Source of the DNA: an uncultured Eubacteriales bacterium
GTDB lineage: Bacteria; Bacillota; Clostridia; Acetivibrionales; CAVYEU01
Reading direction: 5' to 3'
Length of the DNA: 64,000 nucleotides
NCBI GenBank assembly: GCA_963767415.1
Contig: CAVYEU010000095.1
Coordinates: 2,959-66,958, forward strand
Positions 8,290 to 57,799 of the stretch are shown here, one piece after another. The notes beneath the pieces were generated by a model. The model worked only from the letters and a program-made list of their open reading frames with translations, had not been told where the DNA came from and made no database searches. The stretch's first letter is position 1; each line of letters starts with the position of its first letter. Both the position numbers and the translations under genes were made by a program.

Positions 8290-8331
8290 TGTACTGACGG
8301 TTACAAAATAACATTTTTGTAACCGTCAGTA
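8290..8331. terminator. 18-bp-stem hairpin between tRNA-Pro and the IS remnant
   Basis: GTACTGACGGTTACAAAA-loop-TTTTGTAACCGTCAGTAC, a perfect inverted repeat. Confidence 0.5.
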
Positions 8332-8480
8332 CATGTTAATACTTGCCTCATTAAAAAAATTATTACCTCAGCAAGTATATGTTTTTTTAATTATCATTAA
8401 TATTTTTTCATGCTTTATGATATAATATTTTAATCTCGTATGCAATTAAATTCTTTATGATCTTCTTTAACACTAAAAAA

Positions 8481-8637
8481 AGCAGTACACCGTTATTCGT
8501 GGTAAGAAAACTGACAAAAAAGATGCTACATAGATTGCCGATCTCTTTAATCATGCCCTCGTAGCCGGAAGCTTTATGCCTCCTGTTTATATTAGGCAAC
8601 TTCGTGACCTAATAATGCGCTACAGGTTCACGGTTTG
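8481..8637 (+). pseudogene. IS110-family transposase remnant (internal fragment with an in-frame stop)
   Basis: Translates RGKKTDKKDAT*IADLFNHALVAGSFMPPVYIRQLRDLIMRYRFTV, matching the IS110-family block ..KTDriDAe.LA.l.....l..VpvP.....LR.L.R.R..LV. No intact ORF survives; it lies next to tRNA-Pro. Confidence 0.6.
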
Positions 8638-8664
8638 AAAATTTTTGTCCTTTAGCTGTTCCTA

Positions 8665-15717: not shown

Positions 15718-16689
15718 ATGGCACAAAGTAGTATTAGCAAAACAAGAGAAATGACCAACTATGAAGAAATATCTGAACGAGATTTAATTATGAAATTTAA
15801 TGAATTTGATTCTCAAAAAACAAATGAAAGTGATTTACTTGAAATGGTTAAGCTGTTATTTAGAGATGGAAAGCAGATAACTAATTCTATTCTTTTATCT
15901 CTAGCATGTAGGCATAATTATATAGAATTGGCTGAATTGTTATTTATTAGTATCAGTAATAACAAAGATTTTAACATTGACAAAATCTTATGGGATGCCT
16001 TACTCAAAAAGAATAAAACTTTGGCTGATTTTCTGATTGCACACGGAGCAAATTTTAATCTAGTAGATGTTGTTAACCCAAACTATTTGATTAGTGATAA
16101 TAATGGCATTGAATTTGATGAATCAGACCAACAGACTGAAATGAAACAGACTATATATAAAACAATAATGCGCTATGTAGATAATATCAATAGCTGTGAG
16201 CTGTTGACTGATGAAGAAACAAAAAGGGAATTTTTTTCTATTATTGAGAATAATATTATAAATCCTATTATGCAAATTGATAATTTAAAAGCTTTGGAGC
16301 AGAGATTAATTCTTGCTTCAATTATCCAAATCAATGACAAAGATTTATTTTATTGTCAATTAGATAATGAAATAAGAATAAGACCAGAACTGGATAGTCC
16401 ACTAAAATGTATTAGAAACCTAAATAATATTTTGGGAAATATGATCAATAAATATAAAAAATCTTCTAGCTTATATGGCGTATCCAATATTTATGAAAGA
16501 CCATCTAAAGTTTATACCCTACAAAATTTATCTGGTTCTTATGTACCAGTTTCTCCTTTATCACCTGTTACAGCAGATGTTCCCCTTACAAGGTCTCCAT
16601 CTACAATAGAACAAAATAGTCAATGGTTTATTCATAAGTCTAAATCGGGAAATCAAAGATTATTCATTCCTAAACAAAATAGTATATAA
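15718..16689 (+). CDS. hypothetical protein with ankyrin-like repeats and an S/P-rich C-terminus
   Basis: 323 aa; LLxxGAN-type repeats (ADFLIAHGANFNLVDV); no catalytic motif. Confidence 0.4.
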   Translation: MAQSSISKTREMTNYEEISERDLIMKFNEFDSQKTNESDLLEMVKLLFRDGKQITNSILLSLACRHNYIELAELLFISISNNKDFNIDKILWDALLKKNKTLADFLIAHGANFNLVDVVNPNYLISDNNGIEFDESDQQTEMKQTIYKTIMRYVDNINSCELLTDEETKREFFSIIENNIINPIMQIDNLKALEQRLILASIIQINDKDLFYCQLDNEIRIRPELDSPLKCIRNLNNILGNMINKYKKSSSLYGVSNIYERPSKVYTLQNLSGSYVPVSPLSPVTADVPLTRSPSTIEQNSQWFIHKSKSGNQRLFIPKQNSI

Positions 16690-16691
16690 AT

Positions 16692-16740
16692 AAAACACCT
16701 CGCATACAATATACAAATATTGTATGCGAGGTGTTTTATT
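16692..16740 (+). terminator. rho-independent terminator after the 15718..16689 gene
   Basis: AAAACACCTCGCATACAATAT-loop-ATTGTATGCGAGGTGTTTT followed by a T-run. The GAGGTG in the 3' arm may double as the RBS for the next gene. Confidence 0.65.
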
Positions 16741-17409
16741 TTGAAAAAAGACATTATGTTTTTATTGATATTTATTTTTGGAATAAATATTTTAAGCGGA
16801 TGTAGTTTAATAGAAAGCGTCAGTCTCAAAAAGAATGCTGAAACCCAAGCTTTCCCTGTAAGCAGTACGGCTTTGAGTGAGAGTGAAGCTCAAAAGCGAA
16901 CTGACAAAGTTCCTATACATCTTTATTTCGCAAATGGAGATAATTCAAAGTTAAAGCTTGAAATCCGGTATATTCCTGTTGAGGAGGCGAAAAAAAGTGT
17001 AAACAATCTTGCTTCCATTGTATTAAAGGAATTAATAAAAGGACCCAAGCCAGGTGGCGGATTAAGATCAACAATACCTGTAGATACCAAACTGATTTCT
17101 TCAATCTCAATAGATGGGGGAATATCTTCTGTTAATCTTTCAAACGATTTTATAAAAAACCATGCAGGAGGTAAAGCCGAAGAAGAATTAACCTTATATT
17201 CAATTGTAAATTCATTAACAGAACTAAAAGAAATTCAAAAAGTAAAATTTTTTATCGAGGGCAAACAACAAAGAGACTTTAAAGGGAATTTTAAATTCAA
17301 TGCATTGTTCCCTAGAAATAGCTCTCTAATAAGTAAAGAAATCGAATCACTAAGTCCAAACGAAAGATCTACTGTAGGCACAAGCAAAACTGAAGATTAT
17401 CTTGAATAA
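16741..17409 (+). CDS. GerMN-domain lipoprotein (sporulation/germination GerM-like)
   Basis: Lipoprotein signal with lipobox (MKKDIMFLLIFIFGINILSGC from a TTG start, or MFLL.. from the ATG at 16756), then a GerMN-like domain (VPIHLYFANGD...KFFIEGKQQRDFKG). Confidence 0.65.
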   Translation: MKKDIMFLLIFIFGINILSGCSLIESVSLKKNAETQAFPVSSTALSESEAQKRTDKVPIHLYFANGDNSKLKLEIRYIPVEEAKKSVNNLASIVLKELIKGPKPGGGLRSTIPVDTKLISSISIDGGISSVNLSNDFIKNHAGGKAEEELTLYSIVNSLTELKEIQKVKFFIEGKQQRDFKGNFKFNALFPRNSSLISKEIESLSPNERSTVGTSKTEDYLE

Positions 17410-17496
17410 TAATATACTAAGGGGACGAAAATATTGACAATATCTTCGTCCCCTTAGTATATTATTATCGTCTTATTATTTCAACGGCTTCTTAAT

Positions 17497-18120: not shown

Positions 18121-18226
18121 TTAACCCACCTTCCTTATCTTTTGAATTTTAATTAATTGCTTTTCTATTTTATTATACGAAAAATACTATCAATTAACAA
18201 ATTTATTGTTTAGCTGTTCCTAAGAC

Positions 18227-18995: not shown

Positions 18996-20498
18996 TTGAA
19001 TGTGATTTTACAAGGAGGAATTTTTATAAAAAAGATACGAGCTTTCTTTTCGGATGCTATGTCTGACATCTTACAAACAAGTATTACAGATTATTACGAA
19101 AGAAGTCTCATTCCAGATTATTCATCAAAGTTCTGTACATCAAGTTTTTGGATTTCCAATATATCTCAAGCAAATAAAATCATATTAAATAAAAATAAAA
19201 TATTTAAATTAAATAAAATAAACACATCAAATTCGAATACTAATGTTGTTGATTTAACTATATTTGAACCTGAGATTTCAAAGACTATATTACTAGACCT
19301 CATACATAAATTTTCGATCCCATCGCAAGATAGATATATAAACGGAAAAAAAGTAGATCAAACATATTATAATAATCTAATTCAAAAAATGCACTTTTAT
19401 AGTCTAAATGAACCCATTAAGGTTCTTTTTGGGATTACTGTGAAAAGAACAGATATAAGATCTTTTCCAACTCAAGATAAAGGATTTGACTCTCCAGACG
19501 ATATTGAATTTGATTATTTTCAAGAATCAGCCTTAGAAATTGCTGAACCTTTAATAATATTACATGCAACAGATGATAAAGCCTGGTACTTTATTCGTTC
19601 TTCGAATTATCACGGATGGGTTCGTGCAAGTAATGTTGGAGTTTTTGACAACAAGAAAGACTGGTTAAATTATCTTAATCCCTCCCAATTTTTAATTATA
19701 ACCGCAAATAAACTAAAATTAGAAGTCAATCCCTATTCGAAAAAATTATCAGAACTCGAATTTGGAATGGGGGTAAAGCTACCATTAATTCTAGATTCCA
19801 ATACCGGGCAGATTATTGACAATCAAACAGCAACGTGTAGTTATACTTGCCGAGGTAATAATTTTTTAATGAGGCAAGTATTAACATGCACTAGCGGTTT
19901 CAAAAATGTTATTTTGAAACCTAGTGCAGTATATAAGGTAAAGATCCCAACACTAAGTGCTGATGGGAGGGTTGCATTAAATACTGTCCTAATACCCATA
20001 TCATCCGATGTATCTATCGGACACTTGGAGTATACTAGAGAAAATATTTTATCACAAGCATTTAAGTTATTAGGAGATAGATATGGTTGGGGTGGGATGT
20101 TCAGAAGCCGAGACTGTTCAGGTATAATTTTAGATATATTTAAGTGCTTTGGAATTATTTTACCAAGAAACACTTCTCAACAAGAATTATCAGCAGGTAA
20201 AACATATTTATTTGAAAATTTAGACGTTTTAGCCCGTAAAAAGATTTTAGACAAATTGTCTCCTGGAGCAGCATTATATATGAAAAATCACGTTGTACTA
20301 TTCCTTGGGAAATACGAAGACCGATACTATTGTATTCAAGCAATTTATGCATATGCTGATAAGCTCAAGCCAAATTCTGATGGGTCATTTGAAAAAATTA
20401 TTTTAAACAGTACAATTGTTACCACCCTTGATCTACCGCTAAAAAGGAATGGAAAGAGTATACTCGAAAATCTTATACTAGCCAAAATGTTTGAATAG
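18996..20498 (+). CDS. SH3-domain-containing NlpC/P60 (C40) peptidoglycan endopeptidase, YkfC-like
   Basis: C-terminal C40 catalytic region GDRYGWGGMFRSRDCSGIILDIFKCFGIILPRNTSQQ...NHVVLFLG with Cys/His. Start codon uncertain. The CDS holds one copy of a 95-bp repeated element at 19836-19932. Confidence 0.8.
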   Translation: MNVILQGGIFIKKIRAFFSDAMSDILQTSITDYYERSLIPDYSSKFCTSSFWISNISQANKIILNKNKIFKLNKINTSNSNTNVVDLTIFEPEISKTILLDLIHKFSIPSQDRYINGKKVDQTYYNNLIQKMHFYSLNEPIKVLFGITVKRTDIRSFPTQDKGFDSPDDIEFDYFQESALEIAEPLIILHATDDKAWYFIRSSNYHGWVRASNVGVFDNKKDWLNYLNPSQFLIITANKLKLEVNPYSKKLSELEFGMGVKLPLILDSNTGQIIDNQTATCSYTCRGNNFLMRQVLTCTSGFKNVILKPSAVYKVKIPTLSADGRVALNTVLIPISSDVSIGHLEYTRENILSQAFKLLGDRYGWGGMFRSRDCSGIILDIFKCFGIILPRNTSQQELSAGKTYLFENLDVLARKKILDKLSPGAALYMKNHVVLFLGKYEDRYYCIQAIYAYADKLKPNSDGSFEKIILNSTIVTTLDLPLKRNGKSILENLILAKMFE

Positions 20499-23946: not shown

Positions 23947-25812
23947 TTATTCTTTAATCGTGTTTAATGCAACTTCATCTCTTGACATCTGTAATGGCAT
24001 TGTAGCTATAACGATATGTTTATGCCTTAATAACTGTTTTTCTACATACGCCCTGGTATGATTGTGCAAGATCTTATGCCACCAAGATTTAACACCAAAT
24101 TCTGGAAGAATCACAGTTATCATGTCACCTTTTTTATAGTCATACTCTACAGATTCAATAAATTTGAGTAGTGGCTCAACGATTTTTCTAAATGGAGAAT
24201 ACTTTACAACTAAAGGTATATCTGTATTAATCTGTCTCCATGTACTTTCTATCCTGTCTCTACCTTCCTCATCTATTGATATATTAAATGCAACAACATT
24301 ATCTGAAATCGTTTTAGCATAGCGCAATGCTCTAATACTAGCTTTATTTACTCCTTGTATTGGGACAATAACACGATTCCTATAGTTTGTATTTGAAATA
24401 TCTACCTGAGATAATTCTTCGGGTTTTATCCTAAGTTGCTTTGATATAGCAGTATAATGATTCTTAACCTTTTTCATTATAATAACAAGTATTGGAATTA
24501 GGATTACTACGATCCATGCACCTTCATTAAATTTTGAAACAGCAATTATAGCTACTACAATAAAAGTAACCAATGATCCAAACCCATTAATAATTGCTTT
24601 TATTATCCAATTCTTTCCCTTATGTCTATTCCATTTTAAAAACATACCAAATTGAGATAGTGTGAAAGAAATAAAAACCCCAACAGCGTACAATCCAATC
24701 AACGATGTTACATTAGCCCTAAATAACGTAATTAACAGAGTCGCTATCGCTGATAAAATAATTATTCCATTTGAATAACTAAGTCTATCTCCTTTTATTG
24801 TTAACTGTCTTGGAGCGTATCCCTCATATGCCATAATAGATACAAGCAATGGGAACCCTGAATATGCAGTATTCGCAGCCATAATCAATATAATAAATGT
24901 TGTTGCTGTAACATAATAAAACATAAAATTATTTCCAAAAATTAGTTCTGCAATCTGAATAAGCACTGCCCCGTTTTCGGGTACCACATGATATATATTT
25001 GCAAGAATTGAAGTTCCACCAAACAATAACAGTACTACTAAGGAAAGTAAAATCAATACTGTTTTTGCATATTTTACTGAAGGACTTTTAAATGCTGGAA
25101 CAGCATTACTTACAGCCTCAACACCAGTAAGTGCAGTACATCCACTTGAAAAAGCCTTTAGAAGTAAAATCAAAGTAATAGGTTGTCCAATCGACCGTAT
25201 TGTTGGTTCAGGAGGAACAAAACCCATTTTATACTTTATTATCCCAAGTATTATCATACCAAGAATCCCAAAGATGAATGCATAAGCAGGAATTCCAAAC
25301 ATACGTGATGATTCACGTACTCCTCTTAAATTACCAACCATTAAAATCGAAACCATAAAGATACATATTAATACTGTATATGGACAAAGTGAAGTAAATG
25401 CAGAGGTTATTTGTTCTACCCCTGAGGACACACTAACTGCAACCGTTAATATATAATCAATTGATAATGCTGCACCTGCTATAATTCCAGCTGTTGCACC
25501 AATATTATCTTTCGCAACAATATATGCACCGCCACCATTAGGGTAATTGTCAATTGTTTGGGTATAAGACAAAGTCAACAAAATCAAAAGACCTATTATC
25601 GCTAATGATATATAGGTCAGTTGAGAATACGCTAAAAGCCCTATAGCTGGGATTAAAACCAGCAATATTTCTTGTCCTGCGTAGGCAACCGAAGAAATCG
25701 CATCGCTTGATAAAATCGGCAAGCCCCAAAGGACATTATATTTTTCATCATTCATTAATTCATTTTTTAAAGGTCTTCCAATCACAACTCTTTTTAGTTC
25801 CTTAACAGTCAT
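23947..25812 (-). CDS. kimA: KimA/YdaO-family K+ importer (APC superfamily, C-terminal cytoplasmic domain)
   Basis: 621 aa. Aligns along its whole length with B. subtilis KimA (GRPLKN...LSSDAISSVAYAGQEIL...YPNGGGAYIVAKDNIG...LLKAFSSGCTALTGVEAVSNAVPAFK...KNHYTAISKQLRI...WHKILHNH). Confidence 0.8.
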   Translation of the reverse strand: MTVKELKRVVIGRPLKNELMNDEKYNVLWGLPILSSDAISSVAYAGQEILLVLIPAIGLLAYSQLTYISLAIIGLLILLTLSYTQTIDNYPNGGGAYIVAKDNIGATAGIIAGAALSIDYILTVAVSVSSGVEQITSAFTSLCPYTVLICIFMVSILMVGNLRGVRESSRMFGIPAYAFIFGILGMIILGIIKYKMGFVPPEPTIRSIGQPITLILLLKAFSSGCTALTGVEAVSNAVPAFKSPSVKYAKTVLILLSLVVLLLFGGTSILANIYHVVPENGAVLIQIAELIFGNNFMFYYVTATTFIILIMAANTAYSGFPLLVSIMAYEGYAPRQLTIKGDRLSYSNGIIILSAIATLLITLFRANVTSLIGLYAVGVFISFTLSQFGMFLKWNRHKGKNWIIKAIINGFGSLVTFIVVAIIAVSKFNEGAWIVVILIPILVIIMKKVKNHYTAISKQLRIKPEELSQVDISNTNYRNRVIVPIQGVNKASIRALRYAKTISDNVVAFNISIDEEGRDRIESTWRQINTDIPLVVKYSPFRKIVEPLLKFIESVEYDYKKGDMITVILPEFGVKSWWHKILHNHTRAYVEKQLLRHKHIVIATMPLQMSRDEVALNTIKE

Positions 25813-25841
25813 ATTTACTTAATCCACCTTAATACTCTATT

Positions 25842-25904
25842 TAGGAACAGCTAAATAATAAATTTCTAGCTTTAAAAACCGGTTTTATTATTTAGCTGTT
25901 CCTA
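25842..25904 (-). promoter_or_regulatory. 21-bp perfect-stem hairpin in the kimA 5' leader (attenuator/terminator candidate)
   Basis: TAGGAACAGCTAAATAATAAA-21 nt loop-TTTATTATTTAGCTGTTCCTA. On the minus strand it lies between a TTGATA-16-TATTAT promoter and the kimA RBS (AAGGTGG). Confidence 0.5.
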
Positions 25905-25929
25905 GGGTATATTTTTAGTGCCTTTATCA

Positions 25930-25957
25930 ATAATACACTATACATAAAGTATATCAA
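25930..25957 (-). promoter_or_regulatory. sigma-A-type promoter for kimA (TTGATA-16-TATTAT on minus strand)
   Basis: Read on the minus strand: TTGATA, 16-nt spacer, TATTAT. Confidence 0.45.
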
Positions 25958-26185
25958 CAGTTAAAGTTAATAATGATATTTGCAATCTACCCTAAATATT
26001 GTACACTAATATCTTAAATAAACCATAAAAATTTTTATATAATTTGTGCAATTTTTACATATGATATTACTATTTAGAGATCGTAGGGGGATCTTTGAGG
26101 GAAGTCTTCAAGCTGTCGTAAGATCTATAACCCTGCTTGCCACCTTAGGTAACCGCAGGGTCTGAATAATGACTATAAAAATTAT

Positions 26186-26920
26186 CTATTTTTTAAAATA
26201 CTCCTTAATTCCTTCAAAAATTGCAGTAGCTACTTTGTCCTGGTACTCTCTTGTTACAAGCAATTTCTCTTCATTTGGGTTAGATAAAAACCCGCATTCA
26301 ACGATTGAGATTATTGCCTTATTATTATTCAAAATGATTATCGGTTCCTTTTTTTCTAAAGCAGTTCGTTTATTATTTGGATCAACTGATCTTTTTATCG
26401 AATCTTGTAAACATAAAGCGAGCCTTTGACTTTGTGGTGAATTTGAGGGATAAAACGTTTGAGCTCCACTATATTTACCTTCAGGAAATTTATTTAAATG
26501 TATACTTACAACAATATCAGTTGCTTCATCGTCCATCATTTTTTTCCTTCTCAATAGATCTTGTTTCCTTTTTTGAACTATTCCCTTTGTTTCTGACTGG
26601 TATTCTAATCTATCTTCTTCTCTAGTCATTAAAACTTTATAATTTTCAGTAGTTAATAAATCCCTTAGTCTTTTTGCAATATACAAGTTTACATCTTTCT
26701 CTTTAAGTCCACTAAAGTCACTCACTGCTCCCGGATCTTCCCCTCCATGTCCAGGATCAATTAACACTATTTTGGATTTAATTTCGGTATTTGTAGTTAC
26801 TGCTGATGAAACATCATGAATAAACTCTATTCCATACAGAACTAAAGATAATAAGATGATAAGTAACGTAAATATAACTCTATTCTTCTTAAAAATTAAG
26901 ATCATACTCTCATACCTCAT
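26186..26920 (-). CDS. cwlD: N-acetylmuramoyl-L-alanine amidase, CwlD-like (germination-specific)
   Basis: Signal/TM, then Amidase_3 motifs (IVLIDPGHGGEDPGA...ADIVVSIHLN...IIVECGFLSNPNE). Confidence 0.8.
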   Translation of the reverse strand: MRYESMILIFKKNRVIFTLLIILLSLVLYGIEFIHDVSSAVTTNTEIKSKIVLIDPGHGGEDPGAVSDFSGLKEKDVNLYIAKRLRDLLTTENYKVLMTREEDRLEYQSETKGIVQKRKQDLLRRKKMMDDEATDIVVSIHLNKFPEGKYSGAQTFYPSNSPQSQRLALCLQDSIKRSVDPNNKRTALEKKEPIIILNNNKAIISIVECGFLSNPNEEKLLVTREYQDKVATAIFEGIKEYFKK

Positions 26921-26993
26921 TTTAAATGTTTATTAATATAAATATTACTAGAGGTATGTTTTTATTACAAAAATCTTTTCTCTTTTTGAAATA

Positions 26994-27133
26994 GCAAAGC
27001 AATAGAGAGGCAAGACAAGACAAGGGAGGTGGAGTGACAGGGGACGGTTCTTTGACACACATGCATGTGTGTCAAAGAACCGTCCCCTGTCACTCCACCT
27101 CCCTTGTCTTGTCTTGCCTCTCTATTGCTTTGC
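26994..27133. repeat. perfect 140-bp palindrome (70-bp arms), GC-rich
   Basis: GCAAAGCAATAGAGAGGCAAGACAAGACAAGGGAGGTGGAGTGACAGGGGACGGTTCTTTGACACACATGCAT and its exact reverse complement, centred at 27063/27064; verified base by base. It overlaps the last codons of capD. Confidence 0.9.
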
Positions 27134-28957
27134 GCAAGTATAACTTGGAACAATAAGACTTATATACTCCATTGCCTGGTCGGAATTTGTCATAATTTTT
27201 TCTTTAAGTTCTTCTATTTCATGTCTTAAAAGCCCTAAATCTGTAAGTATTGGTTTTGCAACAAATATCTTATTATTCTTTGTTTTCCCTAAATCCTCTC
27301 CTTCAATCACTAATTCTTCATATAGCTTCTCTCCTGGTCTAAGTCCAGTAAACTGTATTTCAATATCATCCGTCTTAAATCCCGAGAGCCTAATCAAATT
27401 TTTCGCCAAATCATATATTTTAACTGGCTCGCCCATATCAAGTACAAAGATTTCTCCTCCTTTTGCCATTGCACCAGCTTGTACAACAAGTTGGACAGCC
27501 TCACATATAGTCATAAAAAATCTAGTTATATCTGGATGAGTTACTGTTACAGGACCACCATACTCAATCTGTTTTTTAAATAAGGGAATTACGCTTCCGC
27601 TACTTCCTAGAACATTGCCGAATCGGACCGCAACAAATTCGGTCTTGCTATGCCTATTTAGTGCTTGTATTATCATTTCTGCTACTCTTTTTGTAGCTCC
27701 CATGATATTGGTTGGATTAACAGCTTTGTCAGTTGATACTAAGACAAACTTTTTTACCCCATATTTATCAGAACACTCTGCTAAATTTTGTGTACCAAAG
27801 ACATTATTTCTTATAGCCTCTGTAGGGTTTAATTCCATTAATGGCACATGCTTATGCGCTGCAGCATGAAATACTACATCAGGATTCAATCTTTCAAATA
27901 TATCGTCAATCCTATGCTTTTCTCTAATATTAGCTATTTTCGCATCCAATTTCAAGTTTGGATACTTGCACAACAACTCGTTTTGTATTTCAAATACATT
28001 GTTCTCATTATTATCCAGAATGATTAGTTGCTTTGGGTTAAATGATGCTATTTGTCTACAAAGCTCAGAACCTATAGAGCCACCACCACCAGTCACCATT
28101 ACGACTTGATCTCTCAAATATGATGATATCTCATCAATATCTAAATCCACAGGCTCACGTAACAGGAGATCTTCAATGTCGACATCTCTTATTTTTTGTA
28201 TAACAACCGATTCGTCTATCAATTCTGACATAGACGGAAGAATCTTGACCTTGCAATACGTTTTTGAACATTCACTATAAATCTCATTTATATCCCGGTT
28301 GCTAGCTTTTGGCAATGCGATTATAACTTCACTTATCTTTAGATCTTCAATAACATGCAGTATATCATTACTGGTGCCAACAATTGGCACTCCATTTATT
28401 AGTTTTCCAACCTTGTATTTGTCATCATCAATGATCGCGATAGGTTTACTCATAAGCTCGTGATGCGCTTTTAATTCTTTAATTATTGCAGCTCCTGCAT
28501 CACTTCCTCCAATTATAAGTATCCTTTTATAATTACCAAAAGACCCTATCTGCTTAAGTCTAATTCTTCTAAACACTCTATAAGCAAATCTTACTCCTCC
28601 CACTAAAAAGATATCTACTAAAAAGGCTATTATAAATATACTTCTTGGTATATAAATTCTAGAAATGAAAATATAACTAATAACAATAGCATTACTAACA
28701 AAAGACACCAAAACTATTGTTACCAGTTCAAATATCCCTGCATATTGCCATAGACTGTTGTATAGTTTGAACGCTAAGAAACAAATTATTTTTATAACAG
28801 TTGCAATCAATAGTATTTCAAAAAATGAATTATGGAATTCCTCAGGGATACTCCAAAATGAGAAATCAAACCTTATTAAATATGATATACAAATTGAAAT
28901 ATTAATAAGCAGAATATCTAATAATATCAATAACTTTGTTCTTATCTTATGTCTCAA
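27122..28957 (-). CDS. membrane-anchored polysaccharide biosynthesis protein CapD/PglF-like (NDP-sugar 4,6-dehydratase)
   Basis: 611 aa; N-terminal TM helices; two Rossmann regions (ILIIGGSDAG.., VMVTGGGGSIGSEL); CapD-like length and layout. Confidence 0.85.
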   Translation of the reverse strand: MRHKIRTKLLILLDILLINISICISYLIRFDFSFWSIPEEFHNSFFEILLIATVIKIICFLAFKLYNSLWQYAGIFELVTIVLVSFVSNAIVISYIFISRIYIPRSIFIIAFLVDIFLVGGVRFAYRVFRRIRLKQIGSFGNYKRILIIGGSDAGAAIIKELKAHHELMSKPIAIIDDDKYKVGKLINGVPIVGTSNDILHVIEDLKISEVIIALPKASNRDINEIYSECSKTYCKVKILPSMSELIDESVVIQKIRDVDIEDLLLREPVDLDIDEISSYLRDQVVMVTGGGGSIGSELCRQIASFNPKQLIILDNNENNVFEIQNELLCKYPNLKLDAKIANIREKHRIDDIFERLNPDVVFHAAAHKHVPLMELNPTEAIRNNVFGTQNLAECSDKYGVKKFVLVSTDKAVNPTNIMGATKRVAEMIIQALNRHSKTEFVAVRFGNVLGSSGSVIPLFKKQIEYGGPVTVTHPDITRFFMTICEAVQLVVQAGAMAKGGEIFVLDMGEPVKIYDLAKNLIRLSGFKTDDIEIQFTGLRPGEKLYEELVIEGEDLGKTKNNKIFVAKPILTDLGLLRHEIEELKEKIMTNSDQAMEYISLIVPSYTCAKQ

Positions 28958-33099: not shown

Positions 33100-33545
33100 T
33101 ATTATACAACAACTTCATAAATATCTTTATTAATACACTTCTTCCACCCACTTATGTATTCTTTATTCTTATTAAAATTAAATAAGATCAAATACCCTGT
33201 ATCTTTTCGTTTGCTATACTTGCCGAGGTAATAATTTTTTTAATGAAGCAAGTATTAACATGCACTAACGGTTTCAAAAATGTTATTTTGAAACCTAGTT
33301 CAGTATATCAATATACTTCGCCAATTGTTCTAGTGCATTTTTCTCACAATTTTCTCCGTGCCATATCTTAAGCTCAATAATATGTTCTTCTCCACTATAA
33401 GTTATTATTATATCCATTCTGTTATCCATGCGTGTTTCTGGTTCAACATAATAAAATCCAGTTCCGTTAATAATCGGCTTAAAAAAACTATAGCCTTTAG
33501 CGTGGCAGCCCTCGTGCTTTTGCTCTGAAGTGTTAAATCACCCCT
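33100..33545 (-). pseudogene. degenerate remnant of a PD-(D/E)XK_9 (DUF1703-like) nuclease-domain gene, interrupted by a 95-bp repeat copy
   Basis: Minus-strand fragments translate as ...GFYYVEPETRMDNRMDIIITYSGEEHIIELKIWHGENCEKNALEQLAKYI... and ...RKDTGYLILFNFNKNKEYISGWKK... with no start and several stops. The 95-bp element sits at 33213-33309. Confidence 0.4.
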
Positions 33546-38450: not shown

Positions 38451-38470
38451 AGCAGATAACATAAAAATTA

Positions 38471-38504
38471 AAAGGAGAGAACATAGATCTATGTTCTCTC
38501 CTTT
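38471..38504. terminator. bidirectional terminator between dnaJ and the convergent mcp gene
   Basis: AAAGGAGAGAACATAGATCTATGTTCTCTCCTTT perfect hairpin with A/T flanks. Confidence 0.7.
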
Positions 38505-38532
38505 TAATTTCTTGCACTTGAAATTTAATGTT

Positions 38533-45214: not shown

Positions 45215-45409
45215 ATACTAAAAACCAAAGGAGAGTGTCTAAACAGGATAATAATGGGATTATTTTATAAAACTTTGCGTTTTTTAAAGGTAAAAACAGT
45301 ATTTGACGAAATAGGAAGAAAATTGAATATAGATCTCCTAAAAAATATTTGTTTGAATCTTGTTGTTGTTGAACTCTCCTTTTATATAGATTTAAAAAAA
45401 TCTAAATGA

Positions 45410-45450
45410 ATAAGCAAAAAGGTGCTTAAAAGCACCTTTTTGCTTATTCA
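45410..45450 (+). terminator. rho-independent terminator upstream of pseC
   Basis: AATAAGCAAAAAGGTGCTT-AAA-AGCACCTTTTTGCTTATT. Confidence 0.65.
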
Positions 45451-45477
45451 TTTAGCCGATGAGATGAGGAGGATTTT

Positions 45478-48321: not shown

Positions 48322-48451
48322 AAAACTTTAGATAACATTTTAGTAAGAATATTGAGATTTTGAACATTACTTAAGTAAATATTTTCATTAAAGATATACA
48401 AATAAATAAGCGTTTAATTATAAAAGGTTCAAAATAAATTCACTCTAATAT

Positions 48452-48487
48452 AGATTAGCATATTTTTGTAAAATTTGCTAATCTATA
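48452..48487. promoter_or_regulatory. 13-bp perfect inverted repeat (operator candidate) in the divergent ankyrin/metH intergenic region
   Basis: ATATAGATTAGCA-N(~10)-TGCTAATCTATAT. Confidence 0.3.
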
Positions 48488-48703
48488 TTAAAAATAATTT
48501 TTCATGAAAAATTATAGGGATAGGTGGTATTGACTGATTGTCTAGCATTAAACGAGAATTGTTTAAACAAAGATAAGATTACGTGATTGAAAACACACTT
48601 ATTTGTGATTGAAAAGACAACCTGAATTAGTGATTTTGACCTACCTTTACCCTTCATTCTACTTGACTAGACTAAGCCTATCAAGTAGAATTTCCTCAAG
48701 GGG

Positions 48704-51797: not shown

Positions 51798-51907
51798 AAC
51801 AATTGTTAAGTTAAAGAAAGGCGATGTATTAATATGATCATAAAAAAATACAACATAAAACCAAAAAATTAACCTTAAAGTTAATTGGATACTCAAACAA
51901 TAGATAA

Positions 51908-51947
51908 ATATAGCGATAAAGCCTCAAATGAGGCTTTATCGCTATAT
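51908..51947. terminator. bidirectional terminator between nth and the convergent hsp20
   Basis: ATATAGCGATAAAGCCTCA-AAT-GAGGCTTTATCGCTATAT. Confidence 0.7.
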
Positions 51948-51968
51948 TTTATAAAAATTAGATATTAT

Positions 51969-53633: not shown

Positions 53634-53717
53634 TTTGTTTATTTTAATTCAATTATTGATAAAAATAATGTTTCTGTAATAAAAGTACCTTTTTTAAATT
53701 TTATCATAACTTCAAAA

Positions 53718-53748
53718 GAGGGACAAGGTACCTGTCCCCTTGTCCCTC
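53718..53748. repeat. REP-like GC-rich palindromic element, copy 1
   Basis: GAGGGACAAGGTACCTGTCCCCTTGTCCCTC; nested palindromes GGGACAAGG/CCTTGTCCC and GGACA..TGTCC. Confidence 0.8.
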
Positions 53749-53768
53749 CAATATAATTAGGAGCATTA

Positions 53769-54743
53769 TCAATCCTTTTCTCTTAATTCCAGTATTTCGG
53801 CTTCAGATATATTTAATATATTTATAATTTCATCTATAGATCTACCTAAGTTTATTAACTTTTTTGCGATTTCATATACCGTTTGTTTTTTCCCTTCTTC
53901 TATACCAAACCTCTTTCCTTCTTCTATACCAAACTTCTTTCCTTCTTCTATACCAAGCTTCTTTCCTTCTTCTATACCAGACTTCTTTCCTTCTTCTATA
54001 CCATCTTTTTTCCCAACTACATAAGTAGACTCATGCATACTTGCCTGATAATGCATATTTTCTATATAACGTTTATAATCAAGTAAATCTTCTTTAGGTA
54101 GCTTCATTTTATTTAATTTCTCTCGTGCCTCGCTTAGCCCTTTTGCACTAAATTCTTCCTTTATCTCTTCATTTTTCAAAAAATAGATCCATTCATCTAA
54201 CGAATCTTTTGCTATATCGTTAAACCTGTTTACCTTTATAAGATAATATTCTGGATATATTTGATAAACAAAATCTTTTGAGTATAACTCTTGCTGTCTT
54301 GCATTTAATTCCAATTCATCATCAAAGTGCAATCCTTTGAATTTTGTTGTACCATGATATACATAATCAAGTCCATGCCCTAGGTCAAAAAATACTACAC
54401 TTATTGAGTATATTTTTTTTACACTTGAATAGGGATCGCTTTCCCTCATGTACTCTGTTATTGACTTGGAAACTCCAAATAGAATCCTTGATAAAAAATC
54501 AAATTCGTTATCTACTTGAATTTCTACAATTATTAACTCCTTGTCTTCGTTTTCTACCATTATATCAACTCTATTGTATTTATCGTCCTTATCTTCTTTA
54601 TTACTTTCACTCTCTATTATATTCACAATTTTTAGATTTTGACGTAATACAACACTTAAGAACCCTTCCAGAACCCCAAAATTCGCTTTACTTCTTAATA
54701 GTTTTTTTATTGCCCAGTCAAACCGTACCAGCTCTCTCTCCAT
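53769..54743 (-). CDS. Rpn/YhgA-like PD-(D/E)XK nuclease-family putative transposase (TIGR01784-like), paralog 1
   Basis: N-terminal PD-(D/E)XK core (RVDIMVEN..ELIIVEIQ) and a C-terminal G(I)EEGKK decapeptide repeat encoded by 30-bp tandem DNA repeats (53880-54010). Confidence 0.65.
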   Translation of the reverse strand: MERELVRFDWAIKKLLRSKANFGVLEGFLSVVLRQNLKIVNIIESESNKEDKDDKYNRVDIMVENEDKELIIVEIQVDNEFDFLSRILFGVSKSITEYMRESDPYSSVKKIYSISVVFFDLGHGLDYVYHGTTKFKGLHFDDELELNARQQELYSKDFVYQIYPEYYLIKVNRFNDIAKDSLDEWIYFLKNEEIKEEFSAKGLSEAREKLNKMKLPKEDLLDYKRYIENMHYQASMHESTYVVGKKDGIEEGKKSGIEEGKKLGIEEGKKFGIEEGKRFGIEEGKKQTVYEIAKKLINLGRSIDEIINILNISEAEILELREKD

Positions 54744-55003
54744 GACCTCTCTCCTACATTTATATTTTATTTAGTATTATATTTAAGTAAGTATAATTGC
54801 TATCTGATAGTATTATACTATAATTATTTTAAGATACGTTATAGTTATTTTTTTTTAATTGTTTTTTCTCAAACTCGTCCAGCCTAATTCAGTCTCTAAT
54901 ATGGTTTATGTACCTACAATTGCTTATCAATAGTAAAAACGCACCCCTTTGTTCTCCTTATTTTTTTTCAATTGCTGGGACAAAAGTGGGAGCAGGGGAA
55001 AAA

Positions 55004-55034
55004 GAGGGACAAGGTACCTGTCCCCTTGTCCCTC
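55004..55034. repeat. REP-like palindromic element, copy 2
   Basis: Identical GAGGGACAAGGTACCTGTCCCCTTGTCCCTC. Confidence 0.8.
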
Positions 55035-55256
55035 TCCACTGATGAAATAGGTAAAAGCCTAAGCAATTTTATACTATTGAAAAACATAGTGATGACATTG
55101 TTTTTAAAGTTGCTGATAAAAGAAATAAAACACTCAAAAGTCTCGATAAATTCAAACTACTAAAACACTTTGAAGCATCTAGAAAGTGGAATAAAAAGAA
55201 TAGTTAAATCAACCGCAACTGATAAAAATAGCCCATACTGTGGCATTCATTTCAAG

Positions 55257-55281
55257 AGAGGGACAGGTACCTTGTCCCTTC
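55257..55281. repeat. REP-like palindromic element, degenerate copy 3
   Basis: GAGAGGGACAGGTACCTTGTCCCTT; one base missing relative to the full element. Confidence 0.6.
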
Positions 55282-55293
55282 CTTCTGTCATTT

Positions 55294-56316
55294 TCAATCA
55301 TGTAATACTTTTTTTATATCATCAATACTTTCAATTTGGAAAATACTTTCAATTAGCGTATCTACCAACACCAAATTATTTTTAAGTTTGATTTGATCTA
55401 ATAATTCTTTTGTTAAATCAATCTTTTTAATACTAAGTAGTTTAACTAAGCAATCTATTTTAGCTTCTATCATACCTTTTTCAATACCTTTTTCAATACC
55501 TTCCTCTTTACCCTTTGCAAGACCATCTTTATAAATTGCTTTTGCTATATTTGATTTATAACATGCTAATCCCATACTATTCACATCTCCTTCCTCTAAA
55601 TTAATTAATTCATTATCAAGCTGGATTTCCATCTCATCTGATAAACTAATTATTGCATTTATAAATATAAAAATCTTCTCTATTTTTTCTCTTGTATAAT
55701 TATTTCTCAATAATTGCCTAATCAATCGTAATTTAAAAATGTATTTCTCTTCATCGGTATTATTATTAATTGAATATAATACTGCTAATACTATAAGTGC
55801 AAATGAATTATTATTTGCCTCTAATGTTTCTATTCTTTGATCAATTATTTTATATATATTAAATTTATATGATACTGATGTATTCAAAAAATTATACTTA
55901 AACTCATTAGGCTTATATTTTATATTTGAATCTGTAAATATAGTTAATGCTACTATTTCTTTTGCATATTTATCATATATTCTATAAAAATACTTAAACA
56001 TCCTTTCTAAAAACAATGTGTCTTGATACCCTTGAATTTCAATATGGATCAAAACCCACTTTTCTTCACCTGTTTTTAAATACACTTTGACCAATTTATC
56101 AGGTATTTTCTTTCCTATCTTTGCTTTTATTGATATTTTTGAAAGTTCTTTATCTAAAAATTCATATGGTTTTGTAAAATCAATTATTTCATAAAGTTCT
56201 GGTAAAAAGAATAAAACAAAATCTTCAAATAAATCCTCTATTATTCCCTTCCAAAGCTCATCATGGCTTACTTTAACAATATTATCAACATCTTTATTCT
56301 CATATATCAATTCCAT
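55294..56316 (-). CDS. Rpn/YhgA-like PD-(D/E)XK nuclease-family putative transposase, divergent paralog
   Basis: PELYEIIDFTKPYEFLDKEL...DKLVKVYLKTGEEKWVLIHIEIQ core and a C-terminal EGIEKGIEKG repeat typical of the family. Confidence 0.65.
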   Translation of the reverse strand: MELIYENKDVDNIVKVSHDELWKGIIEDLFEDFVLFFLPELYEIIDFTKPYEFLDKELSKISIKAKIGKKIPDKLVKVYLKTGEEKWVLIHIEIQGYQDTLFLERMFKYFYRIYDKYAKEIVALTIFTDSNIKYKPNEFKYNFLNTSVSYKFNIYKIIDQRIETLEANNNSFALIVLAVLYSINNNTDEEKYIFKLRLIRQLLRNNYTREKIEKIFIFINAIISLSDEMEIQLDNELINLEEGDVNSMGLACYKSNIAKAIYKDGLAKGKEEGIEKGIEKGMIEAKIDCLVKLLSIKKIDLTKELLDQIKLKNNLVLVDTLIESIFQIESIDDIKKVLHD

Positions 56317-56437
56317 TGTTATTTTATCAACCCAATCTTTTGTCTATTTATTTTGATTATATTTCTTTTGATTTAAAAAAACAATACTAATTGGTAAATA
56401 TGGGCATATTCTACCTTTATAGTGTTATTGATAGAAT

Positions 56438-56467
56438 TTAAGGGAAAGGGACAAGGAACCTGTCCCC
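56438..56467. repeat. REP-like palindromic element, copy 4 (one mismatch)
   Basis: GGGACAAGGAACCTGTCCCCTTGTCCCTCC. Confidence 0.75.
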
Positions 56468-56599
56468 TTGTCCCTCCAATATAATTAGGAGCATTATCAA
56501 TCCTTTTCTCTTAATTCCAGTATTTCGGCTTCAGATATATTTAATATATTTATAATTTCATCTATAGATCTACCTAAGTTTATTAACTTTTTTGCGATT

Positions 56600-57454
56600 T
56601 CATATACCGTTTGTTTTTTCTTCCCCTCCTTCTTCTATACCAAACTTCTTTCCTTCTTCTATACCAAGCTTCTTTCCTTCTTCTATACCAGACTTCTTTC
56701 CTTCTTCTATACCATCTTTTTTCCCAACTACATAAGTAGACTCATGCATACTTGCCTGATAATGCATATTTTCTATATAACGTTTATAATCAAGTAAATC
56801 TTCTTTAGGTAGCTTCATTTTATTTAATTTCTCTCGTGCCTCGCTTAGCCCTTTTGCACTAAATTCTTCCTTTATCTCTTCATTTTTCAAAAAATAGATC
56901 CATTCATCTAACGAATCTTTTGCTATATCGTTAAACCTGTTTACCTTTATAAGATAATATTCTGGATATATTTGATAAACAAAATCTTTTGAGTATAACT
57001 CTTGCTGTCTTGCATTTAATTCCAATTCATCATCAAAGTGCAATCCTTTGAATTTTGTTGTACCATGATATACATAATCAAGTCCATGCCCTAGGTCAAA
57101 AAATACTACACTTATTGAGTATATTTTTTTTACACTTGAATAGGGATCGCTTTCCCTCATGTACTCTGTTATTGACTTGGAAACTCCAAATAGAATCCTT
57201 GATAAAAAATCAAATTCGTTATCTACTTGAATTTCTACAATTATTAACTCCTTGTCTTCGTTTTCTACCATTATATCAACTCTATTGTATTTATCGTCCT
57301 TATCTTCTTTATTACTTTCACTCTCTATTATATTCACAATTTTTAGATTTTGACGTAATACAACACTTAAGAATCCTTCCAGGACCCCAAAATTCGCTTT
57401 ACTTCTTAATAGTTTTTTTATTGCCCAGTCAAACCGTACCAGCTCTCTCTCCAT
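56600..57454 (-). CDS. Rpn/YhgA-like PD-(D/E)XK nuclease-family putative transposase, paralog 2 (near-identical to 53769..54743 but with fewer 30-bp repeat units and an altered C-terminal end)
   Basis: Protein identical to paralog 1 over about 270 aa; the GIEEGKK repeat is shorter and the C-terminus reads GIEEGGEEKTNGI. Confidence 0.6.
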   Translation of the reverse strand: MERELVRFDWAIKKLLRSKANFGVLEGFLSVVLRQNLKIVNIIESESNKEDKDDKYNRVDIMVENEDKELIIVEIQVDNEFDFLSRILFGVSKSITEYMRESDPYSSVKKIYSISVVFFDLGHGLDYVYHGTTKFKGLHFDDELELNARQQELYSKDFVYQIYPEYYLIKVNRFNDIAKDSLDEWIYFLKNEEIKEEFSAKGLSEAREKLNKMKLPKEDLLDYKRYIENMHYQASMHESTYVVGKKDGIEEGKKSGIEEGKKLGIEEGKKFGIEEGGEEKTNGI

Positions 57455-57713
57455 GACCTCTCTCCTACATTTATATTTTATTTAGTATTATATTTAAGTA
57501 AGTATAATTGCTATTTGATAGTATTATACTATAATTATTTTAAGATACGTTATAGTTATTTTTTTTTAATTGTTTTTTCTCAAACTCGTCCAGCCTAATT
57601 CAGTCTCTAATATGGTTTATGTACCTACAATTGCTTATCAATAGTAAAAACGCACCCCTTTGTTCTCCTTATTTTTTTTCAATTGCTGGGACAAAAGTGG
57701 GAGCAGGGGAAAA

Positions 57714-57744
57714 GAGGGACAAGGTACCTGTCCCCTTGTCCCTC
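57714..57744. repeat. REP-like palindromic element, copy 5
   Basis: GAGGGACAAGGTACCTGTCCCCTTGTCCCTC. Confidence 0.8.
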
Positions 57745-57799
57745 TCTAAATAGTAACAAGAAAAAGAAACAAAGAAAAAACAGCTGACAAAGCCTCTGT

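Follow-up and report, generated by a model that had tools for sequence, protein, structure and literature searches.

The cwlD-kimA locus

This report concerns the intergenic spacer between cwlD and kimA in a 64-kb stretch of DNA from an uncultured member of the Clostridia; this stretch, analysed at its full length, is referred to as the window. The window is AT-rich (32% GC), and on its minus strand a capD-like polysaccharide biosynthesis gene (27122-28957) is followed by cwlD, by the 373-nt spacer and by kimA, which encodes a potassium importer. Two parts of the spacer are at issue: a perfect hairpin in the predicted 5' untranslated region (5'UTR) of kimA, and a GC-rich island near the end of cwlD (Table 1). 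An earlier reading of the sequence (the original prediction) had described both, and had drawn attention to the lack of a riboswitch for cyclic di-adenosine monophosphate (c-di-AMP) upstream of kimA and to a possible structured RNA on the opposite strand.

The kimA product carries the Pfam families AA_permease_2 and K_trans, and in an alignment to KimA of Bacillus subtilis it keeps the K+ site residues D36, Y43, T230 and Y377, whose K+-coordinating roles have been described (PMC10284832). CwlD scored 216.7 bits against TIGR02883, slightly below the cut-off of 221.55 bits, and its 239-aa form is identical to a database protein (P0121). The closest KimA in a collection of 5.8 billion proteins is 73% identical, and the closest CwlD homologues, with named relatives in Pseudobacteroides, Acetivibrio and Herbivorax, are 60-63% identical; thus, there is no close relative for a comparison at the nucleotide level. 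The kimA comparison set consisted of 24 loci (Clostridia metagenome-assembled genomes, Ruminiclostridium, Clostridium and others) with KimA proteins of 37-69% amino acid identity and 1-4 kb on each side, and the cwlD/kimA gene order is not kept in relatives. An independent assembly of approximately 1.1 kb from the same organism (Logan contig L034 from run ERR11523654, positions 1-1147) is identical to the window over cwlD and the spacer; it ends within the loop of the kimA leader hairpin, which suggests that the inverted repeat breaks short-read assembly graphs.

Table 1. Features of the cwlD-kimA locus and solo copies of the repeat found in the hairpin arms (positions in the window)
Feature	Position	Strand	Evidence
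kimA, K+/H+ symporter of KUP/APC type, 621 aa	23947..25812	-	phmmer against B. subtilis KimA (PDB 6S3K), E=1.8e-154, residues 5-608
Shine-Dalgarno sequence AAGGTGGA, 10 nt from ATG	25823..25830	-	read off the sequence
Hairpin of the predicted kimA 5'UTR (perfect inverted repeat, 21-bp stem, 21-nt loop)	arms 25842-25862, 25884-25904	-	arms 100% complementary
Sigma-70/SigA-like promoter, TTGATA-16-TATTAT	25930..25957	-	consensus scan, 10/12 matches
Unstructured tract, C-rich and G-poor on the cwlD-sense strand	26070..26128	-	base counts, folding z
Stable bipartite stem-loop with internal loop, then UUAUAGAUCUU	26129..26162	-	folding against shuffles
cwlD, germination-specific N-acetylmuramoyl-L-alanine amidase, 239 aa	26186..26905	-	TIGR02883 E=2.8e-64; Amidase_3 E=1.7e-45
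Solo repeat copy, directly 3' of the stop of a 1421-aa CoA-enzyme activase gene, abutting an IS110 fragment	8644..8664	+	repeat search
Solo repeat copy, 24/25 identical to an arm, between a 210-aa gene of unknown function and a chagasin-type inhibitor gene	18199..18223	+	repeat search

The kimA leader hairpin and its dispersed repeat

The original prediction had placed a sigma-A-like promoter upstream of kimA, followed by a perfect 21-bp hairpin before the ribosome-binding site, and a promoter-like site followed by such a hairpin is indeed present. Transcription from this site would start near position 25923, giving a predicted 5'UTR of approximately 110 nt. In this AT-rich region, promoter-like matches do not exceed the expected number (4 versus 7.9), and since such matches are no rarer in shuffled sequence, the kimA promoter is plausible but not proven. 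The hairpin stops 11 nt upstream of the Shine-Dalgarno sequence and, as RNA of the kimA strand, folds with -29.0 kcal/mol (z=-8.5).

What the original prediction had overlooked is that the arms of the hairpin belong to a dispersed repeat. The hairpin consists of two inverted copies of a 21-25-nt unit, TAGGAACAGCTAAAyAATAAA, whose 13-nt core (TTAGCTGTTCCTA) is present in the window in four copies, where 0.11 are expected, and none of 100 shuffled sequences reached four. The two copies outside the hairpin are solo copies of 21-25 nt that are 86-96% identical to the arms. All four copies are intergenic, in a window that is approximately 86% coding by a crude call of open reading frames (ORFs), and the genes beside them are unrelated, encoding a CoA-enzyme activase, an unknown protein, a chagasin-type peptidase inhibitor and KimA. 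A possible TA is found at each end of the hairpin, where it is inseparable from the palindrome itself. We conclude that the hairpin in the kimA 5'UTR probably represents two head-to-head copies of a small dispersed repeat that is specific to this genome and similar to repetitive extragenic palindromes and bacterial interspersed mosaic elements (REP/BIME) or to miniature inverted-repeat transposable elements (MITEs).

This repeat resembles known families in several ways. Like REP/BIME and short MITEs, it is short, dispersed in intergenic DNA and present in multiple copies beyond chance; like the Correia repeat-enclosed elements of Neisseria and REP/BIME, it is found both as single copies and as an inverted pair that makes a long hairpin in an mRNA leader. 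It differs from Correia elements in being shorter, with a unit of 21-25 nt and a pair of 63 nt, and from REP/MITE families in that neither a cognate transposase nor a REP-associated tyrosine transposase (RAYT) was identified here. It shows no similarity to the adjoining IS110 fragment or to a full IS110 relative from a plasmid (L037), and no further transposase was noticed in the window. The core of the arm did not occur in approximately 230 kb of related loci, and a comparable hairpin was present in none of 23 related kimA leaders. The 20-mer of the arm had no match in IMG/VR and nine matches in JGI metagenomes that look like chance, five of them being one unrelated sequence of approximately 41% GC.

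The kimA hairpin is also distinct from the terminator-like hairpins of this genome, which are built from an A-tract, a GC core and a T-tract with loops of 0-4 nt, whereas the kimA hairpin is composed of repeat copies around a 21-nt loop and lacks a U-run on the kimA strand. Perfect or near-perfect hairpins of 21-31 bp with 0-4-nt loops are located at 16688-16741, 17406-17468, 38465-38510, 45402-45455 and 51906-51949, some of them flanked by A- and T-tracts; they seem to be bidirectional intrinsic terminators, apparently in the usual style of this genome.

Other identities of the arm and the leader were considered. The arm as a binding site of a common regulon was rejected because the neighbouring genes are unrelated, and the arm as a sigma-54, extracytoplasmic function (ECF), SigH or SigD promoter was rejected by eye only, because the spacings and the downstream boxes vary among the copies. 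The leaders of the 23 related kimA genes have no block in common with this leader (blastn, nhmmer and MAFFT). A conserved novel kimA leader in the relatives is likewise rejected, since the blocks that they share resemble the start of a divergent upstream gene.

Absence of a c-di-AMP riboswitch upstream of kimA

The precedent of kimA (ydaO) in B. subtilis and in the B. cereus group (PMC6488665, PMC10284832) leads one to expect a riboswitch of the c-di-AMP class (RF00379, ydaO-yuaA) here. When the whole window was scanned by Rfam cmscan with 4227 families at the gathering score, the sole match was one tRNA (tRNA-Pro). Even at E<=10, neither strand of the region 25750-26250 gave any match to RF00379, and only spurious matches of the microRNA type appeared on the hairpin; a degenerate or weak ydaO riboswitch was rejected on this permissive scan. 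Thus, the spacer does not belong to the c-di-AMP riboswitch family, because the covariance-model match that defines the family was looked for and is absent, and the original prediction was right in stating that this kimA lacks a ydaO riboswitch on its sense strand. It had also regarded this absence as remarkable, a view that the related loci do not bear out: within approximately 4 kb, none of the 24 related kimA loci has any Rfam family at the gathering score, and none of seven rescanned loci (six among the closest, and that of Ruminiclostridium sufflavum) has one at E<=0.05. As this clade is without the riboswitch throughout, its absence here needs no special explanation.

In contrast to kimA of B. 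subtilis and the B. cereus group, therefore, RF00379 is missing both from this locus and from the 24 related clostridial kimA loci. The useful outcome is a negative one, namely that riboswitch control of kimA is a trait of the Bacillus group and not a general rule, and that it is absent throughout this Clostridia clade. KimA is also inhibited directly by c-di-AMP bound to its cytosolic domain (PMC10284832), and the same has been reported in Listeria (PMC10117814). R337 is the single residue of the transmembrane domain for which a strong interaction with c-di-AMP has been reported, and Q581 and S582 contact c-di-AMP through amide groups (PMC10284832). In the alignment to B. subtilis KimA, R337 and F568 are kept in the protein encoded here. 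Any control by c-di-AMP at this locus would then act on the KimA protein itself.

The GC-rich island downstream of cwlD

The GC content of positions 26070-26159 is 0.478, compared with 0.19-0.25 in the flanks, and the patch as a whole (26070-26165) has approximately 46-48% GC. A GC-rich segment upstream of kimA had been part of the original prediction; it is present, and the sequence quoted there lies at 26079-26165. The two halves of the island are different in nature. On the minus strand, 26070-26130 contains 17 C and 8 G in 61 nt (plus-strand GC skew +0.33), and it folds no better than shuffled sequence on either strand (z=-0.30 minus, -0.46 plus). The stem-loop at 26129-26162, in contrast, is stable on both strands, with -21.2 kcal/mol (z=-4.3) on the minus strand and -17.1 kcal/mol (z=-3.6) on the plus strand, and it is weaker on the plus strand because two G-U pairs turn into A-C mismatches there. 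For the whole 126-nt stretch, the z scores are -1.7 (minus) and -2.05 (plus). The several stems that had been read into the island are therefore an overstatement, as only this one hairpin beats the shuffled controls.

On the minus strand, the island belongs to the 3' untranslated region (3'UTR) of cwlD rather than to the kimA leader: the promoter-like site of kimA is located downstream of it, and the hairpin of the island starts 23 nt past the cwlD stop codon. On the plus strand, neither a promoter-like nor a terminator-like site was found in 25700-27300, and no credible gene follows the island, as had been noted before: the 86-aa ORF at 26169-26429 (+) is almost wholly antisense to cwlD and belongs to no Pfam family. 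The suggestion that the island encodes a structured RNA or small RNA (sRNA) on the plus strand thus found no support, with neither promoter nor terminator, a single hairpin that is more stable on the minus strand, and no homologue in the collections searched; the fallback suggestion, a 3' element of cwlD on the minus strand, fits best.

Both halves have counterparts in known 3' ends. The stem-loop resembles an intrinsic terminator in being a stable GC-rich hairpin that follows a stop codon on the sense strand, at a distance of 23 nt; it departs from one in that its stem is bipartite with an internal loop and its tail (UUAUAGAUCUU) has no U-run. The Rho utilization (rut) regions of Rho-dependent terminators are C-rich, G-poor and unstructured over about 60-90 nt, and 26070-26130 has this composition, being approximately 60 nt of untranslated sequence after a stop codon. 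It is short for a typical rut site, and the likeness is one of composition only.

The island occurs only once in the window. Neither the 24 kimA loci nor two cwlD loci of relatives (L035 and L036) contain it, and no related sequence was found in 36 loci from other sources, JGI metagenomes, IMG/VR or plasmids. In one of the two cwlD relatives examined (L036), a 29-bp hairpin and a canonical terminator lie directly behind cwlD, so that a terminator is to be expected at this position. Conservation of the island 3' of cwlD in relatives was rejected, since L035 and L036 are dissimilar there and have a different downstream gene. In both (approximately at L035 3980-4040 and L036 3945-4005), cwlD is followed not by kimA but by a gene for a Cu_amine_oxidN1-LysM-SH3 protein, and the upstream regions of these two genes share the stretches AATTACATGCTGATTT ... 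TATGTAAACTTAA, possibly a promoter or operator.

Several further identities of the island were rejected. A 21-aa match of 43% to the downstream LysM/SH3 gene, in the same orientation, had raised the possibility of a relic of that gene, but the DNA alignment was no better than shuffles, and the match is attributed to chance. An IS110 fragment or bridge-RNA remnant was dismissed because the island has no similarity to the full IS110 relative, which other parts of the window do match. A 34-codon ORF spans the island (26061-26165, +), but it was rejected as a gene for a small protein, as it has no Shine-Dalgarno sequence and no Pfam match. A search of 1.84 billion representative proteins with the 37-aa translation gave only two matches, both to tetratricopeptide repeat (TPR) proteins with scores summed over 4-6 repeats, and these are attributed to chance. 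A resemblance by eye to a tRNA or to the 3' end of 16S rRNA (GGTAACCGCAGGG versus GGTAACCGTAGGGG) is treated as a coincidence, as ARAGORN and Rfam were both empty.

Interpretation of the spacer

On balance, we consider it probable, though well short of certain, that the cwlD-kimA spacer is an ordinary intergenic region composed of three unrelated pieces: the 3' end of cwlD, the promoter of kimA and a repeat hairpin in the kimA 5'UTR. The stem-loop at 26129-26162 and the C-rich tract at 26070-26128 would together constitute the 3' end of the cwlD transcript, the stem-loop perhaps acting as a weak intrinsic terminator or as a hairpin that protects the 3' end and the tract as a possible loading site for Rho, and this end would insulate kimA from cwlD transcription. 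Transcription of kimA itself would depend on its own SigA-type promoter (25957-25930). The repeat pair most likely reached the kimA 5'UTR by insertion or duplication of the repeat; once transcribed, it would form a 21-bp duplex that affects the processing or stability of the mRNA in a generic way at most. A perfect duplex of 21 bp is long enough for RNase III; Correia elements located in 5'UTRs are bound or cleaved by this enzyme and change the expression of the neighbouring gene (PMC2649163), and by this analogy the kimA hairpin could be an RNase III site or alter the stability of the mRNA. On this reading, the hairpin senses neither potassium nor c-di-AMP. There is no sign here of a new riboswitch or sRNA, and what is mildly new is an undescribed dispersed repeat of small size. 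The original prediction thus holds as an observation, all of its elements being present, whereas neither the significance of the absent riboswitch nor the plus-strand RNA finds support. For AT-rich genomes in general, this locus illustrates two false leads: a striking perfect leader hairpin can be a pair of copies of a dispersed repeat, and a GC-rich patch can be the 3' end of a gene or a relic instead of a new riboswitch. Should copies of the repeat turn up in large numbers across the genome, the family would modestly extend the known range of REP/MITE-like elements in Firmicutes.

Several points weigh against this interpretation. The stem-loop is not followed by a proper U-run, and a scan for terminator-like sites with at least 5 T in the 8 nt directly after the stem found none in 25700-27300. 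Rho dependence is inferred purely from base composition, and the proximal half of the island is much GC-richer than other spacers and has no demonstrated role. Only four copies of the repeat are visible, as just 64 kb of the genome is in view; no target-site duplication was seen past the possible TA, and no cognate transposase was found in the 64-kb window. The hairpin may hold a regulatory role, as an operator or an RNase III site. In addition, the nearest KimA (73% identical) and CwlD (63%) are too distant for covariation tests, and residues of the c-di-AMP pocket differ from those of B. subtilis KimA (F565L, Q581H, S582T, R587E and W592R).

Other explanations account for one part of the spacer each. 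The island could be a functionless, decayed relic of foreign or ancestral DNA, derived from a mobile element or a lost gene, in which the hairpin is incidental. This reading, which we regard as possible but unlikely, draws its plausibility from the fact that two other odd, GC-rich intergenic patches in the window are relics of IS110 elements, namely a transposase fragment (8513-8637, 43% GC) and 5' non-coding sequence (48509-48623); it is also in keeping with the gene order around cwlD and kimA, which is not conserved, hence rearrangement happened here, and with the frame that is open for 34 codons. An open frame of that length, however, is expected by chance in one of the six frames at 48% GC, and its translation has only the two repeat-inflated TPR matches. 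Nor does the island show similarity to the IS110 element or to plasmids, a Pfam match, or any convincing similarity to the gene after cwlD in relatives, for which the local DNA alignment is no better than shuffles. Much less credible, in our opinion, is an uncharacterized RNA, that is, a plus-strand sRNA or cis-regulatory RNA that is specific to the lineage and antisense to the cwlD 3'UTR, or a distal element of the kimA leader, possibly responsive to a ligand. The GC content does stand out, the G-runs and three GATC-centred segments could allow alternative pairing, and the plus-strand fold of the 126-nt stretch slightly beats shuffles (z=-2.05; 4 of 200 shuffled sequences did equally well). 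Against this, Rfam gives no match even at E<=10, the plus strand has neither a sigma-70-like promoter nor a terminator and no downstream gene apart from the ORF largely antisense to cwlD, and none of the collections searched contains a homologue. Of the two halves, moreover, one is unstructured, and the hairpin in the other, the only significant one, is more stable as minus-strand RNA. For the version in which the island is part of the kimA leader, its location upstream of the kimA promoter-like site on the minus strand is a further obstacle. We rate this explanation as very improbable.

The hairpin, in turn, could be a site dedicated to kimA, either an operator for a dimeric repressor that acts as a roadblock just past the transcription start or an RNA hairpin that responds to K+ through processing or melting. 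Such a role, which would be partly compatible with the three-piece spacer, would suit a perfect palindrome placed between the promoter-like site and the ribosome-binding site, and in the minimum free energy fold of the leader the hairpin is extended by weak pairs that touch the GGUG of the Shine-Dalgarno sequence. This extension, however, comprises only 4+5 weak pairs, too weak to build on. Moreover, the half-sites also occur singly beside unrelated genes (those for the CoA-enzyme activase, the unknown protein and the protease inhibitor), a 21-bp spacing between arms of 21 bp is not what typical operators show, no gene for a regulator lies next to the site, and nothing similar is found in related kimA leaders. 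We consider a dedicated site quite unlikely. A bolder composite is that the 25-nt motif TAGGAACAGCTAAAyAATAAATTT defines an undescribed REP-like family whose inverted pairs in 5'UTRs such as that of kimA serve as RNase III-dependent switches of expression and that, separately, the GC-rich island encodes an antisense or leader RNA peculiar to the lineage; this we would put forward as little better than a long shot. The reading of the spacer as a cwlD 3' end, a kimA promoter and a repeat hairpin is therefore the one that we prefer.

Mobile-element remnants and other repeats in the window

The IS110-family fragment beside the solo repeat copy lies at 8492-8640 (+) and encodes approximately 50 aa with an in-frame stop (PF01548, E=4.5e-6). 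It is approximately 75-77% identical to the transposase of an IS110 element on a plasmid of Clostridium tagluense, and it is cut off exactly where the repeat copy at 8644-8664 starts. A second segment, 48509-48623 (-), is 84% identical over 116 nt to L037 2087-2201, a non-coding sequence directly upstream of the IS110 transposase gene of the C. tagluense plasmid pCM022-180. IS110 elements encode their bridge RNA in the stretch directly upstream of the transposase gene. Next to this segment lies an imperfect inverted repeat of 39 nt (48428-48508). As no ORF of transposase size follows the segment in the window, it has the look of an orphan left end or non-coding RNA remnant of an IS110 element.

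The stop of the capD-like gene at 27122 is overlapped by a perfect palindrome of 140 bp (26994-27133), which lies between that gene and cwlD. The 70-nt arms of the palindrome are 100% complementary without a spacer and have approximately 50% GC; it could be an unusually long bidirectional terminator or a fold-back artefact of assembly. Another repeat, of approximately 93 nt, is present in three copies that are 92-96% identical (8290-8385 (-), 19842-19934 (+) and 33215-33308 (+)) and is MITE-like, with terminal inverted repeats TATACTKGC and two internal hairpins. The copy at 19842-19934 lies within an uninterrupted ORF (18996-20498), between the SH3_6 and NlpC/P60 domains, and leaves the frame intact. 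Finally, positions 53700-57770 contain a tandem duplication of approximately 2.7 kb (300 nt at 100% and 174 nt at 99% identity) with arrays of a 24-nt tandem repeat, and GC-rich hairpins (AGAGGGACAAGGTACCTGTCCCCTTGTCCCTCT) recur in it at 53717, 55003, 56445 and 57713.

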